Shown: positions 9,504 to 20,165 of the stretch, one piece after another
Position numbering within the stretch: the stretch's first letter is position 1
Layout of the letters: the number at the start of each line of letters is the position of its first letter
Assembly: GCA_001778055.1 (NCBI GenBank)
Contig: MFFY01000036.1
Location: forward strand, 1-33,181
Source of the DNA: Candidatus Falkowbacteria bacterium RIFCSPLOWO2_12_FULL_45_13
GTDB lineage: Bacteria; Patescibacteriota; Patescibacteriia; Patescibacteriales; GWC2-42-12
Direction of reading: 5' to 3'
DNA: 33,181 bases
Notes under the pieces: model-generated
Seen by the model: only the letters and a program-made list of their open reading frames with translations
What the model was told of the DNA's origin: nothing
Database searches by the model: none
Made by a program: the position numbers and the translations under genes

Positions 9504-11789
9504 TTATTTTACAGGGCTTACGCGTTCTCTAAGATTACCTGACATTAAATAAAAGGCGATCGGCTTATAACTCTTCGGATCTTTAAAATAATCTTTTATT
9601 TTTTCAACAATTTCGCCCGGAATAAAGTGCTGTTTAACGAAATAGTCAATCATACCCAGCCCGGCGGCCCTGGCCACGTCCGCCTGCTGGCTCATATTGC
9701 ATAAACCGACTATGGGAATTTTCTTGGTTGCGGCGTGAGACTTTAAAATTTCCGCGGCCGTGAATCCATCCATCACGGGCATAATTATGTCCATAATAAT
9801 CAAATCCGGTTTTTCTTTTAAAACCACCGCTACCGGATTTTTAGAAGGACTGCCATAATTCACGTAAGCGAAGCCGGCTTTCTCGAATTTGGCGCCATAC
9901 ATTTTAGCCAGCATCCCATCGTCCTCAAAATGCAAAATTCTAAAATTCATTTTTTTTGCCGAGGCGCTAAACAACGACGCCTCTCCGGCCAATATAACCT
10001 GCTCGTTATTGTTTATAACCTTTCTGGGCAGAGCGCCCGCGCCCGGGCCGATGACGCCTTGCTCTTCCATCAGATCTAAAAGTCTGGCCGAACGAGCGTA
10101 ACTGATGTTAAGCTTGCGTTCTAAATAAGCGGCGGAGGCATGGCCGGATTTAATTACCAGCTCTTTGGCTTCTCCGAGCATATCATCAACCAAGGCCGGA
10201 TTGGCATTTTCCAGGGCGGCTCTTTTCTTCATCTTCTTGTACATCTCCGGCGTGATAAAAACTTCTCTCGGATTAGCGCCGCTGGCCGGGCCGATGACGC
10301 CGAAATTTTCCAGCTGATCCAGGATATACGAGGCCCGGGCATATTCGATGCGCAGCTTTCTTTGCAGCAACGAGATCGAGGCATGACCTTCTTCAATGAC
10401 TAGGCTTTTGGCCGTTTCGAGCAACTCATCCAAATCATCGCCCGAAGAAGCCAAATCTATCACATCGGCTGGTTTAAAATTTCCGCTCTGACCGCGAAAG
10501 TAATCAACCACGTTTTTTATAATTTCATGGCCAACGTAAGGAAGCTGGAGCCGAACCGGCTGGCTCATTTCGGCGTTAATAAACAAAGCCTCTCCCTTGC
10601 CGGACAGCCGTTCGGCTCCGCCCGTATTTAAAATCTCTCTGGATTCTTGTTCGGAGGAGGCGGCTAAGGCCAGCCTGGCCGGAAAATTGGCTTTCAATGC
10701 GCCGGAAAATAATTCATCGCCCGGCTTAGACGTTGCCGCTACTAAATGAAGGCCGCCCGCCCTGCCCAGCTGTAAAAGTTTAATCATTTTCCCCGCCAGT
10801 ATCTTCTTCTGATCGCCAATGCAAAAGTCAGAAATTTCAGCCAGGATAAAAATGATGTAAGGCAGCTTTTCCGGGCGGTCTTTATTATATTCTTCTAAAT
10901 TGCGCATTTCAGCCGCGGCAAAAATTTTGAGCCTGAGGTCCAGCTCGCCCGAGCACCAGTAAAGCGCGTTAATAATTTTTTGATAGGTAGTGATCACCGG
11001 AGTCAAAAGATACGGTAAACTATTGTAAACCGTCAGATCAACCCTCTTTGAATCGGCTAAAATAAATCTTAACACGCGCGGACTATGCTTAGTCATTAGA
11101 CTGATAATCAAAGAATTGATAAAAACCGATTTTCCCGAACCGGCGGCGCCGCCGATTAATAAATGGGGTAAATTATGCAAATTCACGCTCCGTTGCTTGT
11201 TTTCCGAATCTCTGCCAAAAGGCACAGTTAAAGGATTTTTGGTATTTATAAATTTATCGGTTTCCAGCTCATGCCCCAAGCTGACGCCGGCTTGGCGCCG
11301 GTATGGCACTTCTACGCCGATTAAATCTGTGCCGGAAATCGGCGCCTCGATTTTTATGGGATGGACCAAGAGCTCTGAAGCCAGGTCATGTTTTACGGCT
11401 AAAATTTCCGCGGCCTGGACGCCGGCGGCCGGCTTAAAAGAGAATGTCGCGGCCCGGGGTCCAATTAGGGGCTCATTCATGGTTTCAACTTTAATATTAT
11501 GGTCGCGTAAGGCTTTTTCAATAATTTCTTTAAGGTGCTTGACATCGTCCGAGCTGAATTTTTGGCCGGACGATTTCAGAAGTTTTAGGGGCGCTCTAAT
11601 GTCAGGCGTTTCCAGACACCACCAGCTGTTGCTAAGATGCCTCTGGCCAGGTTTAGACAATCGGTTTAAAAGACTGGCGTCCTTGGCCCGGCCCATTAAA
11701 TCGGTAATGGATTTTTTAATTTTGTCCAATTCCAAGATAATAATAATTAAAATGGCTAAAATAAGGATTAAAAAAATTTGTAAAAACAT
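9504..11789 (-). CDS. ftsK: FtsK/SpoIIIE-family protein with two gamma domains and a C-terminal receiver (REC) domain
   Basis: N-terminal TM; FtsK alpha domain (FKPAAGV..IEAPISGTDLIGVEVP); PHLLIGGAAGSGKSV; two gamma repeats (ASISLLQRKLRIEYARA and ASAAYLERKLNISYARS); REC motifs ILHFEDD..PDLIIMDIIMPVMDG..DYFVK. Probably a paralog rather than the cell-division FtsK. Confidence 0.85.
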   Translation of the reverse strand: MFLQIFLILILAILIIIILELDKIKKSITDLMGRAKDASLLNRLSKPGQRHLSNSWWCLETPDIRAPLKLLKSSGQKFSSDDVKHLKEIIEKALRDHNIKVETMNEPLIGPRAATFSFKPAAGVQAAEILAVKHDLASELLVHPIKIEAPISGTDLIGVEVPYRRQAGVSLGHELETDKFINTKNPLTVPFGRDSENKQRSVNLHNLPHLLIGGAAGSGKSVFINSLIISLMTKHSPRVLRFILADSKRVDLTVYNSLPYLLTPVITTYQKIINALYWCSGELDLRLKIFAAAEMRNLEEYNKDRPEKLPYIIFILAEISDFCIGDQKKILAGKMIKLLQLGRAGGLHLVAATSKPGDELFSGALKANFPARLALAASSEQESREILNTGGAERLSGKGEALFINAEMSQPVRLQLPYVGHEIIKNVVDYFRGQSGNFKPADVIDLASSGDDLDELLETAKSLVIEEGHASISLLQRKLRIEYARASYILDQLENFGVIGPASGANPREVFITPEMYKKMKKRAALENANPALVDDMLGEAKELVIKSGHASAAYLERKLNISYARSARLLDLMEEQGVIGPGAGALPRKVINNNEQVILAGEASLFSASAKKMNFRILHFEDDGMLAKMYGAKFEKAGFAYVNYGSPSKNPVAVVLKEKPDLIIMDIIMPVMDGFTAAEILKSHAATKKIPIVGLCNMSQQADVARAAGLGMIDYFVKQHFIPGEIVEKIKDYFKDPKSYKPIAFYLMSGNLRERVSPVK

Positions 11790-11847
11790 ATGATTTATAT
11801 TAATTCATTTAAATTTTAACATAAATCCGGCATCAGTTCAATTTAAG

Positions 11848-12015: not shown

Positions 12016-12459
12016 TCAGGCCGGAGGCGTTGGGCGCGCTTTAATGCGCGTCAGCAGCATGGTGATGACCGCCTGCGCGGCCCAATCCAATATAAGCTGG
12101 CTAACCGTATCGCCTTGGAGGAAGACGCCATTTTTTGCTTCCAAGATATGAGAATCGTGAAAATGCCAAATAATCTGGATAAGGGTTTGCTGCAAGCCTA
12201 CCTCCCCATGGCGGATGATATAAAGCTGATCTTCCTCGTTCGGGAAATTCTTTTGAATCCGCTCCTTAATCCCGGTTTTCCGAGCTTTCACGATTTTAAG
12301 CTTTTGAGCAGACAAGTGCGGCGCCCGCTCTCCTGGTTTCAAACAACCGACAAAGCTGTTCCAAATCTTCTCCTCCTTAATTCCCTCGGGGAAAAGTTTT
12401 TTCAAGATGGCGGTTGCGCGCTGTTTTTTGCTGGTTCTTCTGTTTAATTTCATTTTCAT
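12016..12459 (-). CDS. Hypothetical basic protein
   Basis: 147-aa ORF with a strong promoter upstream and a terminator downstream; no recognisable motif. Confidence 0.65.
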   Translation of the reverse strand: MKMKLNRRTSKKQRATAILKKLFPEGIKEEKIWNSFVGCLKPGERAPHLSAQKLKIVKARKTGIKERIQKNFPNEEDQLYIIRHGEVGLQQTLIQIIWHFHDSHILEAKNGVFLQGDTVSQLILDWAAQAVITMLLTRIKARPTPPA

Positions 12460-13968: not shown

Positions 13969-14034
13969 ACATTCACATAAAAAAATGCAGAGACGCGATT
14001 AATCGCGTCTCTGCATTTTTTTATGTGAATGTTT
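13967..14034. repeat. 68-bp perfect palindrome with a REP-like core, between convergent genes
   Basis: 34-bp arms centred at 14000/14001; core GCAGAGACGCGATTAATCGCGTCTCTGC is shared with 19456-19483; A7/T7 tracts suggest a bidirectional terminator. Confidence 0.9.
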
Positions 14035-15549
14035 GAACACCTGCGCCGTAAACACCAAAATCTCCGTGTCTTTATCTTTGTAAGCATCGGACGGCAGTCC
14101 GGCCTTCTGCCGGCAGAGCTGACTTAAAAATTCTTCCAGGCTCCAGCCGGTTTCGACCGCCACCTGGGGCAAAAAAACGCCACTATGATTTCCTTTTCTA
14201 ATAATTACTCCTTGTTCACCCAATTTTATTTTCCGCCAATCGTCAATCCGCCAAGGGGCGGATAAAACGCTTACCTCATATTCCAATTCGTCCAATTCGT
14301 CTTGACTAACCGGACTAAAACGATAATCTTCGCTGCAAGCCGCCACGGCCATATCGCGCACCACCTGCCAGAGCGGCTGGTCCAATGGCACGATCTGGCC
14401 AATACAGCCACGAAGCTGGCCGTTTTCATCCAAAGTTACAAACGCGCCTTGTTTTTCGTTTAATTTTTCATCGGCCACGCTGAATTCAGGCACCCGGCCG
14501 GTTTTTACATAAATCTCCACTGTGTCTTTAGCGATTTTCAGTAGTGTTTGCTGTTGCTTAATATTTAATCCACCGGTTGCCACGGCTTCAGCCGAGGTTG
14601 CATTTGCAATTTCATTTTCAACTTTGACTTTTACGCTTTCCACTTGAGCGAAAGCGACCGCTCCATACCCCACCACTTGATTTTTATCGCCAATCGGCGC
14701 GTCGCCGCTATTCATGTATTTTAATATTTTAATTTCATCCCAGCCGGCCAAATTCGCCAGCTCCATCACAGTCTTGACCGCGTCAATGCCGCATAGCGCT
14801 GTTTGCTCATTGGCGTAACTGGCCTGTTCCACCGTTGCCGCATATTTTTCTAACTCGGCTACGTCTCCGCTCTTAATTTTTTCCAAAGTGCCTTGATCAA
14901 TTTTATTGGCATCCGCGTACTTAGGATAATGCGACATGTCGGTTGAAATCACCACTAAATCGTTCTCGCCCAAGTTAGCGGCCAGCGCCCGCGCCAGTTT
15001 CTTGTAACCGCCATCGTCTTTATTGCCAAATTCAACGGGTACAATCTTAAAGCCCGGGCTTAAAACCGTTTGCAAAAACGGCAATTCCACTTCCAAGTTA
15101 TGGTCAGCTTGATGCGGCGCGCTGTCAAACTTTATGGCGCCGCCGCCGGCAACGACCAGCTTATCCGCCAATTTCTTATCAACCGCCGCCTGGCCCAAAG
15201 GCGTTTGCCAGGCATCGCTATCATCAATGGCCGCGCCGTCAAAATAGGCTTGATGTGAATTGCCGATCATCACCACCGTATTCACCTTTCTGCCCTGAAG
15301 CGCTTTAAAAGCGTAAGCGGCCACCGCTCCGCTATAATCGTAACCGGCGTGGGGCACCATAATGGCTCGAATTTGGCCACTCCCGCTTTCTCTCTCCGCA
15401 GAAGTTCCCCTCCTTACGAAGGAGGGGCCAGGGGAGGTTATTGAGGGGGTTGTTTGTTTTAAAAATCTTTCAATCTGGTCCGAGACAGCGCCCGGTTCGC
15501 TGGGATAAAACTGCCCGACCACGGCCGGCTGCCTGATTTTTTTTGGCAT
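13999..15549 (-). CDS. amrB: AmmeMemoRadiSam system protein B (MEMO1-like) fused to protein A (AMMECR1-like)
   Basis: IRQPAVVGQFYP, PHAGYDYSG, STDMSHY (MEMO); GAFVTL..GQLRGCIG, DYRFSPV, GVFLPQVA (AMMECR1). Confidence 0.92.
   Translation of the reverse strand: MPKKIRQPAVVGQFYPSEPGAVSDQIERFLKQTTPSITSPGPSFVRRGTSAERESGSGQIRAIMVPHAGYDYSGAVAAYAFKALQGRKVNTVVMIGNSHQAYFDGAAIDDSDAWQTPLGQAAVDKKLADKLVVAGGGAIKFDSAPHQADHNLEVELPFLQTVLSPGFKIVPVEFGNKDDGGYKKLARALAANLGENDLVVISTDMSHYPKYADANKIDQGTLEKIKSGDVAELEKYAATVEQASYANEQTALCGIDAVKTVMELANLAGWDEIKILKYMNSGDAPIGDKNQVVGYGAVAFAQVESVKVKVENEIANATSAEAVATGGLNIKQQQTLLKIAKDTVEIYVKTGRVPEFSVADEKLNEKQGAFVTLDENGQLRGCIGQIVPLDQPLWQVVRDMAVAACSEDYRFSPVSQDELDELEYEVSVLSAPWRIDDWRKIKLGEQGVIIRKGNHSGVFLPQVAVETGWSLEEFLSQLCRQKAGLPSDAYKDKDTEILVFTAQVFKHSHKKMQRRD
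15407..15439. repeat. Hairpin-plus-G-tail element (family A), in frame in amrB
   Basis: CCCCTCCTTACGAAGGAGGGGCCAGGGGAGGTT; encodes TSPGPSFVRRG. Confidence 0.8.
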
Positions 15550-19502: not shown

Positions 19503-20072
19503 CTATTTTCTCAAATTCACCTCGTAATTTATCTGCTCAATTTTCCTTAGATGGCCCTTGGCCTGATCATACTTGGTCCTTAGATAACCTCTCATATCGA
19601 ATTCGACCAGTTCGGCCATAATGTCATCGGCAATCTGATGGATTTTTTTCACTTCCTTATATTTCCCCAGGGTTGCCATCTTAATCGCCCAGCGGACCAA
19701 TTCGCCGATTAAATCCGACAGGCCGCCCAGATAACTTTCATAAGTTAAGCCGACTTTATTAATCTTATCAATCTTTTCTCCGGTCATGACCAGAAAAAAT
19801 AATTTGGCTTCGGCGTATTCTTCCGCCGCCGCCCGGTACGAGCCTTCTTCCAAAGGCCGCTCCAAACCGAACTTCTTTTCCAGGTCGGATAAAATCCACT
19901 CGATTTCCACAAGCATCTTGGCCGCGCGGTCCAGGTCATCGCGATGCAAAGAAAAAATCGCTTTTTTAGCGTCATGCAAAACCGCATTGGCCAAACTGAT
20001 AATCTGCCGGGCTTGGCTGGCATGGTCGTCAAACTCCTTTTTCAACTCACGAATGAATTTTTTGTTGATCAT
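19503..20072 (-). CDS. Translin/TRAX-family (C3PO-like) protein
   Basis: All-helical protein with AKKAIFSLHR, EEYAEA, YLGGLSDLIGELVR and LRTKYD, typical of the translin family. Start ATG 20072. Confidence 0.8.
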   Translation of the reverse strand: MINKKFIRELKKEFDDHASQARQIISLANAVLHDAKKAIFSLHRDDLDRAAKMLVEIEWILSDLEKKFGLERPLEEGSYRAAAEEYAEAKLFFLVMTGEKIDKINKVGLTYESYLGGLSDLIGELVRWAIKMATLGKYKEVKKIHQIADDIMAELVEFDMRGYLRTKYDQAKGHLRKIEQINYEVNLRK

Positions 20073-20076
20073 ATAA

Positions 20077-20165
20077 ACACAAATTAACACAAATTATCGC
20101 CTTACGGCGGAACAAATTTACGCAAATTTATATTGAATCTGTAATAAATTTGTGTAAATTTGTGC
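20077..20165. repeat. Short tandem repeats followed by their inverted copies
   Basis: ACACAAATTA x2, ACAAATTT, ACGCAAATTT, then AAATTTGTGT AAATTTGTG. Confidence 0.65.

Follow-up and report, generated by a model that had tools for sequence, protein, structure and literature searches.

A rare FtsK paralog with paired gamma winged helices and a receiver domain at its C-terminus in Candidatus Falkowbacteria

Introduction

FtsK of Escherichia coli and Pseudomonas aeruginosa, the SftA/SpoIIIE pair of Bacillus subtilis, the degenerate FtsK-like domains of EccC and EssC in type VII secretion, and the response regulators of the OmpR/PhoB class are the described systems closest to the gene presented here. 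This gene occupies positions 9504..11789 on the minus strand of a 33,181-nucleotide (nt) stretch, the window, which is contig MFFY01000036.1 of Candidatus Falkowbacteria bacterium RIFCSPLOWO2_12_FULL_45_13. It encodes an FtsK paralog of 761 amino acids (aa) with two gamma domains and a C-terminal receiver (REC) domain.

FtsK motors are normally controlled through their site of assembly and through motifs in the DNA, and not by way of phosphorylation. For P. aeruginosa FtsK (PaFtsK), residue roles have been described for the catalytic Glu596, Asp599, the phosphosensor Thr630/Gln631, the DNA-gripping Arg632 and the arginine finger Arg620 (PMC9410874). In E. coli FtsK the recognition-helix residues R1300, E1303 and E1306 are described as required for reading the FtsK-orienting polar sequences (KOPS) (PMC2680272). 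With these proteins the 761-aa protein shares the alpha-beta-gamma order, the Walker A motif, the catalytic Glu, the arginine finger and a membrane anchor. It differs from them in having one transmembrane helix, not four or five, and no long linker; its Walker B Asp is lost, the phosphosensor Gln is Ser and the loop II Arg is Lys. It also has two gamma domains and a C-terminal receiver, and it is an accessory protein beside a canonical copy.

SftA is likewise a second FtsK-family protein with reduced membrane attachment that stands beside a full-length one, SpoIIIE (PMC9320952). However, SftA actively translocates DNA, has a single gamma domain and lacks a receiver, and it is a conserved component of Bacillus division, not a rare insertion. 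The D2/D3/DUF domains of EccC/EssC have the FtsK fold with decayed Walker motifs, and the account in PMC11154593 proposes a role for them in regulation or assembly, not catalysis. These domains lie in tandem with an active D1 in one polypeptide and act on protein substrates, whereas the change in our paralog sits in its single motor domain and the partner domains are predicted to read DNA and receive phosphate. The entries 4nh0 and 9qks are sequence matches of the 761-aa protein. Proteins of the OmpR/PhoB class also combine a receiver with a winged-helix DNA-binding domain. In the paralog the order is reversed, with the receiver at the C-terminus; the winged helix is an FtsK gamma, not Trans_reg_C, and a membrane anchor and an ATPase ring are present.

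Results

The open frame at 9504..11789 is single and intact and holds 761 aa plus a stop, exactly as a first-pass annotation of the bare sequence had claimed. The motifs quoted there were found as GGAAGSGKS (residues 213-221), LADSKRVDL (244-252), IIFILAEISDF (312-322) and AATSKPG (351-357), and its domain positions agree to within about 20 nt with those in Table 1. All Pfam matches lie above the curated cut-offs: FtsK_alpha at 70-162 (60.4 bits), FtsK_SpoIIIE at 175-357 (118.2 bits), FtsK_gamma PF09397 in two stretches (141.9 bits; best 452-513) and Response_reg PF00072 at 619-731 (51.5 bits against a cut-off of 30.2). The motor matches the solved E. coli and P. aeruginosa FtsK structures 2ius/2iut with E-values of 1e-69 and 7e-64. 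As a whole, the protein scores 261 bits against the NCBIfam FtsK equivalog NF007615, for which the cut-off is 1566.

We used AlphaFold2 to model residues 440-761. The model (mean predicted local distance difference test score, pLDDT, 87.2; predicted template modelling score 0.56) shows two winged helices with a long helix between them, then a short linker that is disordered, and a receiver with five strands. The two copies of PF09397 and the two modelled winged helices bear out the claim of a double gamma domain. The sole hydrophobic segment of the protein comprises its first ~28 residues (Kyte-Doolittle values rise above 1.6 in the 19-aa windows that begin at aa 1-10 and in no other window). 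This predicted helix, which supports the proposed membrane tethering, is followed by the basic stretch KIKKS, suggesting a single-pass protein with a predicted cytoplasmic body. The start, MFLQI, is common to the 761-aa protein, its orthologs and the short paralogs described below.

Several lines of evidence show that the gene is not an assembly product. Seven distinct full-length 761-aa variants from separate assemblies and several sources are found in the 90%-identity cluster. They differ by 1-7 residues and have the same motifs. The gene stretch was found in sequencing runs of five studies of groundwater and soil, with no RNA run listed among them, and contigs from other studies bridge both the junction with the neighbouring ABC ATPase gene (X5 record 13) and those between the gene, a 147-aa open reading frame (ORF) and the prolyl-tRNA synthetase (ProRS) gene (X3 record 8, X5 record 14). 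In the contigs of the four runs that cover the gene no indels were seen. Codon 277 (window position 10961) encodes Tyr in the window copy only; Asp stands at this position in the remaining six full-length variants and in the four runs. Two orthologs, P0003 and P0004 (757 and 756 aa), are about 67-71% identical to the protein (70% and 67% in alignment A2), carry every domain and align gap-free in the body. Neither they nor any of the seven variants has a stop or frameshift. These results exclude a misassembly, and because orthologs exist at 68-71% identity, they also exclude a pseudogene confined to a single genome.

The genome (G000; 938 kb in 61 contigs, 91% complete) also has a canonical FtsK on contig C11. 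It is 832 aa long, has multiple N-terminal transmembrane segments, a single gamma domain and the full set of canonical motifs, and is 41% identical to the 761-aa protein over alpha, beta and gamma. As the first-pass annotation had supposed, the gene is therefore a paralog. In 24 other species of the family we found FtsK matches of canonical length only (600-894 aa): one each in 22 species, two in G016 and none in G021. None of these 24 species has a gamma domain beside a receiver. The paralog was not found in the 315 other genomes of the order, where two matches at 1e-103 are canonical proteins of 821-824 aa. Full-text literature searches, which covered sources other than subscription journals, found no description of an FtsK with a receiver. 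The architecture is thus rare, not common.

To place the paralog we used a quick maximum-likelihood search in IQ-TREE. P0002, a near copy of the 761-aa protein of this species (P0001), was omitted, and the input set did not include the 996-aa double FtsK P0007. P0001, P0003 and P0004 (the trio) form one clade with a Shimodaira-Hasegawa-like approximate likelihood ratio (SH-aLRT) of 100. The trio nests inside a clade (SH-aLRT 98) of single-transmembrane FtsK paralogs of about 516 aa without receiver (P0005, P0006, P0008 and P0009), and this paralog clade is separate from the 50 canonical Patescibacteria FtsKs in the tree. The nearest homologs of the 761-aa protein bear Patescibacteria names. 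We propose that a further gamma winged helix and a receiver were added at the C-terminus of a single-transmembrane FtsK paralog.

The protein had been described as possibly ATPase-dead. Of the three orthologs, this fits only the copy in this species. Walker A (GxxGxGK[ST]) is intact as GAAGSGKS, and in the alignment Lys220/Ser221, Glu318, Asp321, Arg343 and Thr353 are kept, with Arg343 aligning to the trans-acting arginine finger R620 of PaFtsK. Walker B, defined as hhhhDE (PMC11154593), reads IFILAE with Ala317 in place of Asp, whereas P0003 and P0004 have DE. The equivalents of PaFtsK T630/Q631/R632 are T353, S354 and K355, where Ser replaces the Gln of the phosphosensor and Lys the Arg of loop II. 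The reported change from ATQRP to ATSKP is therefore real, but it consists of two changes. Replacement of the Gln is found in nearly the whole paralog clade (Ser in most members, Thr in P0003) and also in P0244, P0254 and P0359. By contrast, the loop II change (R355K) occurs only in this species, as do the Walker B change (D317A) and P247S, E251D and D400E. No variant at codon 317 was seen in the contigs of the four runs that cover this codon. The basal clade member P0005 has fully canonical motifs.

Of 147 columns conserved to at least 95% in 51 FtsKs (among them P0019, later placed in the paralog clade), 40-47 are changed in the trio, 20-41 in P0005, P0006 and P0008, and 1 in the three canonical controls. 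In E. coli, replacement of the equivalent Walker B Asp (D1121N) is described as an ATPase-dead allele with translocation lost in vivo (PMC2680272), and a survey of P-loop NTPases describes this Asp as strictly conserved and its replacement as inactivating (PMC9599734). From homology to these mutants of other FtsKs we infer that ATP hydrolysis is probably lost or poor in this species.

The equivalents of E. coli R1300, E1303 and E1306 were placed by their 3-residue spacing in the alignment. At the R1300 position gamma1 has Tyr489 in all three orthologs, and Tyr, Ser or Leu is found there in the short paralogs. Gamma2 keeps the Arg. The two domains are 54% alike. Gamma1 most resembles the gamma domain found in the short paralogs (65-70%), and gamma2 that of the resident canonical FtsK (68%).

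The receiver was aligned to RR468, in which we take D9/D10, D53 and K105 (chain positions) to be the acidic pair, the phospho-acceptor Asp and the conserved Lys. They correspond to D623/D624, D667 and K719, and T83 to Cys697. The acidic pair, phospho-Asp and Lys reported earlier are therefore all present. D623, D667, Cys697 and K719 are invariant in the three orthologs, and position 624 is Glu in P0004. The modelled domain has the (beta-alpha)5 fold, and its five strand-helix units reach pLDDT values of 91-98 (in blocks from residue 181 of the model onwards). In Foldseek it superimposes on RR468 with a TM-score of 0.92 and a root-mean-square deviation of 1.4-1.7 Å, and the RR468 and PhoB receivers as a group match it at 0.89-0.92.

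G000 has histidine kinases: one dCache-HAMP-HisKA-HATPase protein, one HATPase protein of 428 aa and one fragment were found, none of them on this contig. The kinases lie on contigs C4 and C15. The genome encodes five receiver proteins. As the four others are single-domain proteins of 134-145 aa, the FtsK paralog is the only one with a DNA-binding domain. The closest in-genome receiver (43%) is a single-domain gene between PilB-like and PilT-like ATPase genes (L005, G000:C19:11556-14894). The order PilB then receiver recurs in a second genome of the family (L228, G014:C11), on a contig that ends before any PilT.

The distribution of conserved residues in the trio is unusual. The fraction of invariant columns is 0.53 in alpha, 0.58 in beta, 0.74 in gamma1, 0.90 in the 21-residue linker, 0.71 in gamma2 and 0.67 in REC, and pairwise identity is 0.78-0.83 for gamma1 versus 0.66-0.71 for beta. 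As a control we took 541 pairs of canonical FtsKs matched on a beta identity of 0.62-0.75, with P0019 excluded. In these pairs, which are not independent of each other, gamma averages 0.60 versus 0.70 for beta and exceeds it in 1%. Constraint has thus shifted from the motor to the gamma domains, the linker and the receiver, the reverse of canonical FtsK.

The combination of gamma and receiver is not restricted to this family. In a full scan of 1.84 billion representative proteins with gamma2 plus REC, eight clusters among the best 150 had both domains, as confirmed by Pfam. These are the 761-aa family, P0244 (motor-gamma-REC), P0254 (motor-gamma-REC-gamma) and five small proteins of 226-283 aa, P0251, P0264, P0266, P0283 and P0382, three of them with an N-terminal hydrophobic helix. 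All seven other clusters are uncharacterised metagenomic proteins with the same order of gamma then REC. The five small proteins lack the motor. They keep the phospho-Asp and, unlike the 761-aa protein, have Cys, Pro, Ile or Thr at the conserved receiver Lys; P0382 has partly lost the acidic pocket as well. They may be atypical receivers. A DPKxY tail motif is found in most gamma-REC proteins and is absent from P0264. In P0244 and P0254, which form long branches outside the clade of the trio, the arginine-finger position is occupied by His or Lys. P0254 (784 aa; cluster mate P0393) is a soluble FtsK-like protein and consists of an extra N-terminal region, alpha, beta, gamma, REC and a second gamma, with Lys at the arginine-finger position.

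A scan of genome contigs with P0001 kept 80 loci, all receiver-only, in which tblastn found no gamma or motor. A scan of metagenome contigs with the gamma-REC alignment A1 and one receiver pattern gave at least 80 loci, and the matches listed were all receiver-only. Among 400 other genomes sampled from the class, profile A1 gave many matches, receiver-only except for G000, and among 400 other genomes sampled from the phylum, P0251 gave 0 matches. The scan of viral contigs with the clade alignment A4 yielded 10 loci, all at 35% identity or less, and the ESM Atlas no usable match. A word-indexed search for shorter proteins found 28 receiver-only proteins and one gamma-only protein (P0415); the small gamma-REC proteins were missed by it.

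Genomic Context

The window is a whole chromosomal contig with genes for FtsH, S1, ProRS, isoleucyl-tRNA synthetase, UvrB and PilB. The features of the paralog and its surroundings are listed in Table 1.

Table 1. Features of the paralog gene and its upstream region in the window.
Feature	Position (nt)	Strand	Basis
Whole gene, single-transmembrane FtsK paralog: alpha, beta, gamma1, gamma2, REC	9504..11789	-	
N-terminal hydrophobic helix, aa 1-21	11727..11789	-	Kyte-Doolittle
FtsK alpha domain, aa 70-162	11304..11582	-	Pfam PF17854, 60.4 bits
FtsK/SpoIIIE beta (RecA-like motor), aa about 175-440	10470..11267	-	Pfam PF01580, 118.2 bits; aligns to 2ius/2iut
Walker A GGAAGSGKS, aa 213-221; Lys220 and Ser221 intact	11127..11153	-	
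Walker B strand IIFILAE, aa 312-318; Asp to Ala317, catalytic Glu318 kept	10836..10856	-	Alignment
Arg343 (arginine-finger equivalent, kept) to phosphosensor/loop II TSKP, aa 353-356	10722..10763	-	Alignment
Gamma1 winged helix, aa 452-513; E. coli R1300 equivalent is Tyr489	10251..10436	-	
Gamma1-gamma2 linker, aa 514-534, PEMYKKMKKRAALENANP...; 90% invariant in three orthologs; predicted helical	10188..10250	-	
Gamma2 winged helix, aa 535-598; recognition-helix Arg kept	9996..10187	-	
Receiver (REC), aa 615-735: D623/D624, D667, C697, Y716, K719	9585..9947	-	Pfam, RR468 alignment, AlphaFold2, Foldseek
C-terminal tail, aa 736-761; opens with DPKxYKP motif common to stand-alone gamma-REC proteins	9507..9584	-	
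Promoter-like site TTGAAC-17-TAAAAT with TG, 24 nt upstream of start	11813..11841	-	Consensus match only
147-aa ORF, no known family; same roughly 3-kb stretch absent from G008	12016..12459	-	Coding status doubtful

In the same-genus genome G008 the gap between the ABC ATPase gene and the ProRS gene is 667 bp, and the roughly 3-kb stretch with the paralog is absent. G007 has this gap filled by 7.2 kb of large secreted proteins, and G005 and G006 are without the ABC pair at the ProRS locus. The differing content of G007 suggests that the site next to the ProRS gene is a hot spot for accessory genes. In G007 itself (L042 6327-13256, between the ProRS and ABC ATPase genes) four genes encode secreted Cys-rich proteins of 287, 1231, 239 and 535 aa. 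Given this variation among relatives, it is most parsimonious that the paralog and the 147-aa ORF were gained. The GC content of the gene, overall and at third codon positions, matches that of its neighbours, and there is thus no compositional sign of foreignness.

The window has no tRNA and no Rfam match. No integrase, relaxase or replication gene was found at the locus, nor any flanking direct or inverted repeats marking a mobile element; the only notable repeat is the 67-nt similarity (70%) between gamma1 and gamma2. PADLOC and PHROGs returned only generic similarity to FtsK motors, gamma domains and receivers (SspH, mad8), with no defence partners nearby. The 147-aa ORF has no Pfam, PADLOC or PHROG family. 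All five of its population variants are non-synonymous in its frame, compared with three of the five in an overlapping frame on the plus strand, and it may not be a real gene.

Taken together, we conclude that the gene is real and accessory and, as far as can be predicted, looks expressed. It is a second FtsK-family gene, most likely gained laterally, and belongs to a small clade of single-transmembrane paralogs.

Two further genes in the window may be mentioned. Positions 13999-15549 (minus strand) encode a 516-aa protein in which Memo-like and AMMECR1 parts are fused, and positions 19503-20090 (minus strand) a Translin-family protein of 195 aa. Translin is known mainly from eukaryotes and archaea. 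No PF00589 domain (Xer-like tyrosine recombinase) was found in the 938 kb of G000, and each of the 24 other family genomes has at least one. As G000 is 91% complete, this may be an assembly gap. We had considered the missing Xer recombinase as an argument against Xer activation by the gamma domains, but dropped it, as all 24 relatives have PF00589 and G000 is incomplete.

Discussion

With moderate confidence we propose that the 761-aa protein is a membrane-tethered DNA-binding protein controlled by phosphorylation, with a motor impaired in hydrolysis in this species. The two gamma domains, joined by the rigid and highly conserved basic helix, would bind DNA. One of the few histidine kinases of the genome would phosphorylate Asp667, and oligomerisation or DNA affinity would change in response. 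The alpha/beta ring may still bind ATP and assemble, since it retains the Lys of Walker A as well as the catalytic Glu and the arginine finger. With Ala317 and Lys355, the protein of this species would hydrolyse little or no ATP and would serve as a nucleotide-dependent clamp or anchor, not as a fast pump. A precedent may be seen in the D2/D3/DUF domains of EccC/EssC, degenerate FtsK-like domains with a proposed regulatory or structural role (PMC11154593).

A broader version of this proposal is possible, and we offer it tentatively. The gamma winged helix and the receiver may form an undescribed response-regulator module that turned an FtsK scaffold into a signal-gated anchor for DNA or the chromosome at the membrane. 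The protein would then be the sole DNA-binding two-component output in a 0.94-Mb genome.

Some observations weigh against the anchor proposal. The end of beta4 of the receiver has Cys697 in all three orthologs where Thr or Ser is expected. The P0001 branch is faster than that of P0003 (90 versus 63 unique changes; Tajima p = 0.029), and the excess lies mainly in the receiver (16 versus 4, p = 0.007); the motor has 32 versus 21 (p = 0.13) and the gamma domains 9 versus 12. The receiver excess could mean relaxed selection on a domain that we consider functional. The 12 population variants, 4 synonymous and 8 non-synonymous, give a ratio of non-synonymous to synonymous polymorphism (pN/pS) of about 0.58, which indicates weak purifying selection at best, on very few sites and with too little power to decide. 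Finally, both orthologs keep Asp-Glu in Walker B, and the family overall may therefore be an active motor, with a recent and degenerative loss here.

This last point leads to the strongest alternative, in which the protein would still translocate DNA and phosphorylation of the receiver would gate its loading or its assembly into hexamers; it would be a signal-controlled second pump comparable to SftA beside SpoIIIE. The Walker A Lys/Ser, Glu318, Asp321, Arg343 and Thr353 are kept, P0003 and P0004 retain Asp-Glu, basal P0005 is fully canonical, and two FtsK homologues per genome are described elsewhere (PMC9320952). However, the protein of this species has Ala317 for the Walker B Asp and Lys for the DNA-gripping Arg of loop II, and the motor is less conserved than the gamma domains and REC. 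We therefore regard an active pump as somewhat unlikely for the protein analysed here, while it may well be the right description of the orthologs.

The gene could also be a recently acquired accessory gene that is drifting to loss in this species and has no important function. The absence of the paralog from all 315 other genomes searched in the order would fit such a history, as would the changes at catalytic positions seen in this species alone, the faster lineage, the pN/pS value with 8 of 12 variants non-synonymous, and the Tyr277 of the window copy. Against decay stand the uninterrupted frames of all seven variants and both orthologs and the lack of indels in four runs. With an overall divergence of about 30%, the invariant share of the gamma domains and linker is still 71-90%, and the time that the gene has spent in the population was sufficient for its base composition to become that of its neighbours. 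Decay is for these reasons unlikely.

Co-assembly with the canonical FtsK, an idea raised by the first-pass annotation, as a regulatory or poisoning subunit that would bring phospho-control to the real pump, appears more improbable still. The paralog is 41% identical to the resident FtsK, gamma2 has its closest match, at 68%, in the resident gamma, and with the arginine finger kept the paralog could in principle complete the active site of a neighbouring subunit. Yet it is absent from all the relatives that have the same canonical FtsK, and about 30% of the near-invariant FtsK positions are changed. Least probable of all, and very improbable in our view, is a pump for mobile-element DNA transfer or DNA uptake like TraB of Streptomyces, a single FtsK-like protein whose winged helix reads a plasmid locus: the inserted stretch at a variable locus, the patchy distribution, the single membrane anchor and the sequence-reading winged helices are compatible with it, but the motor is degenerate, the locus lacks integrase, relaxase, replication gene, tRNA and flanking repeats, and the protein has no close relatives on viral contigs and groups with Patescibacteria FtsK, not with plasmid proteins.

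Members of the family are very rare and come from uncultivated hosts, and the function of the family is predicted from sequence and modelled structure. Within these limits, the three orthologs and the natural Asp-to-Ala change offer a ready comparison for an FtsK ring that binds ATP but probably does not hydrolyse it. In bacteria whose receivers are otherwise almost all single-domain proteins, the small gamma-REC proteins point to a new class of DNA-binding output of response regulators. A receiver coupled to gamma domains would lead two-component signals straight to the binding of DNA at the membrane. If the tentative reading of gamma and receiver as one module is true, an environmental or host-contact signal would be tied directly to the handling of DNA at the membrane in an ultra-small bacterium.

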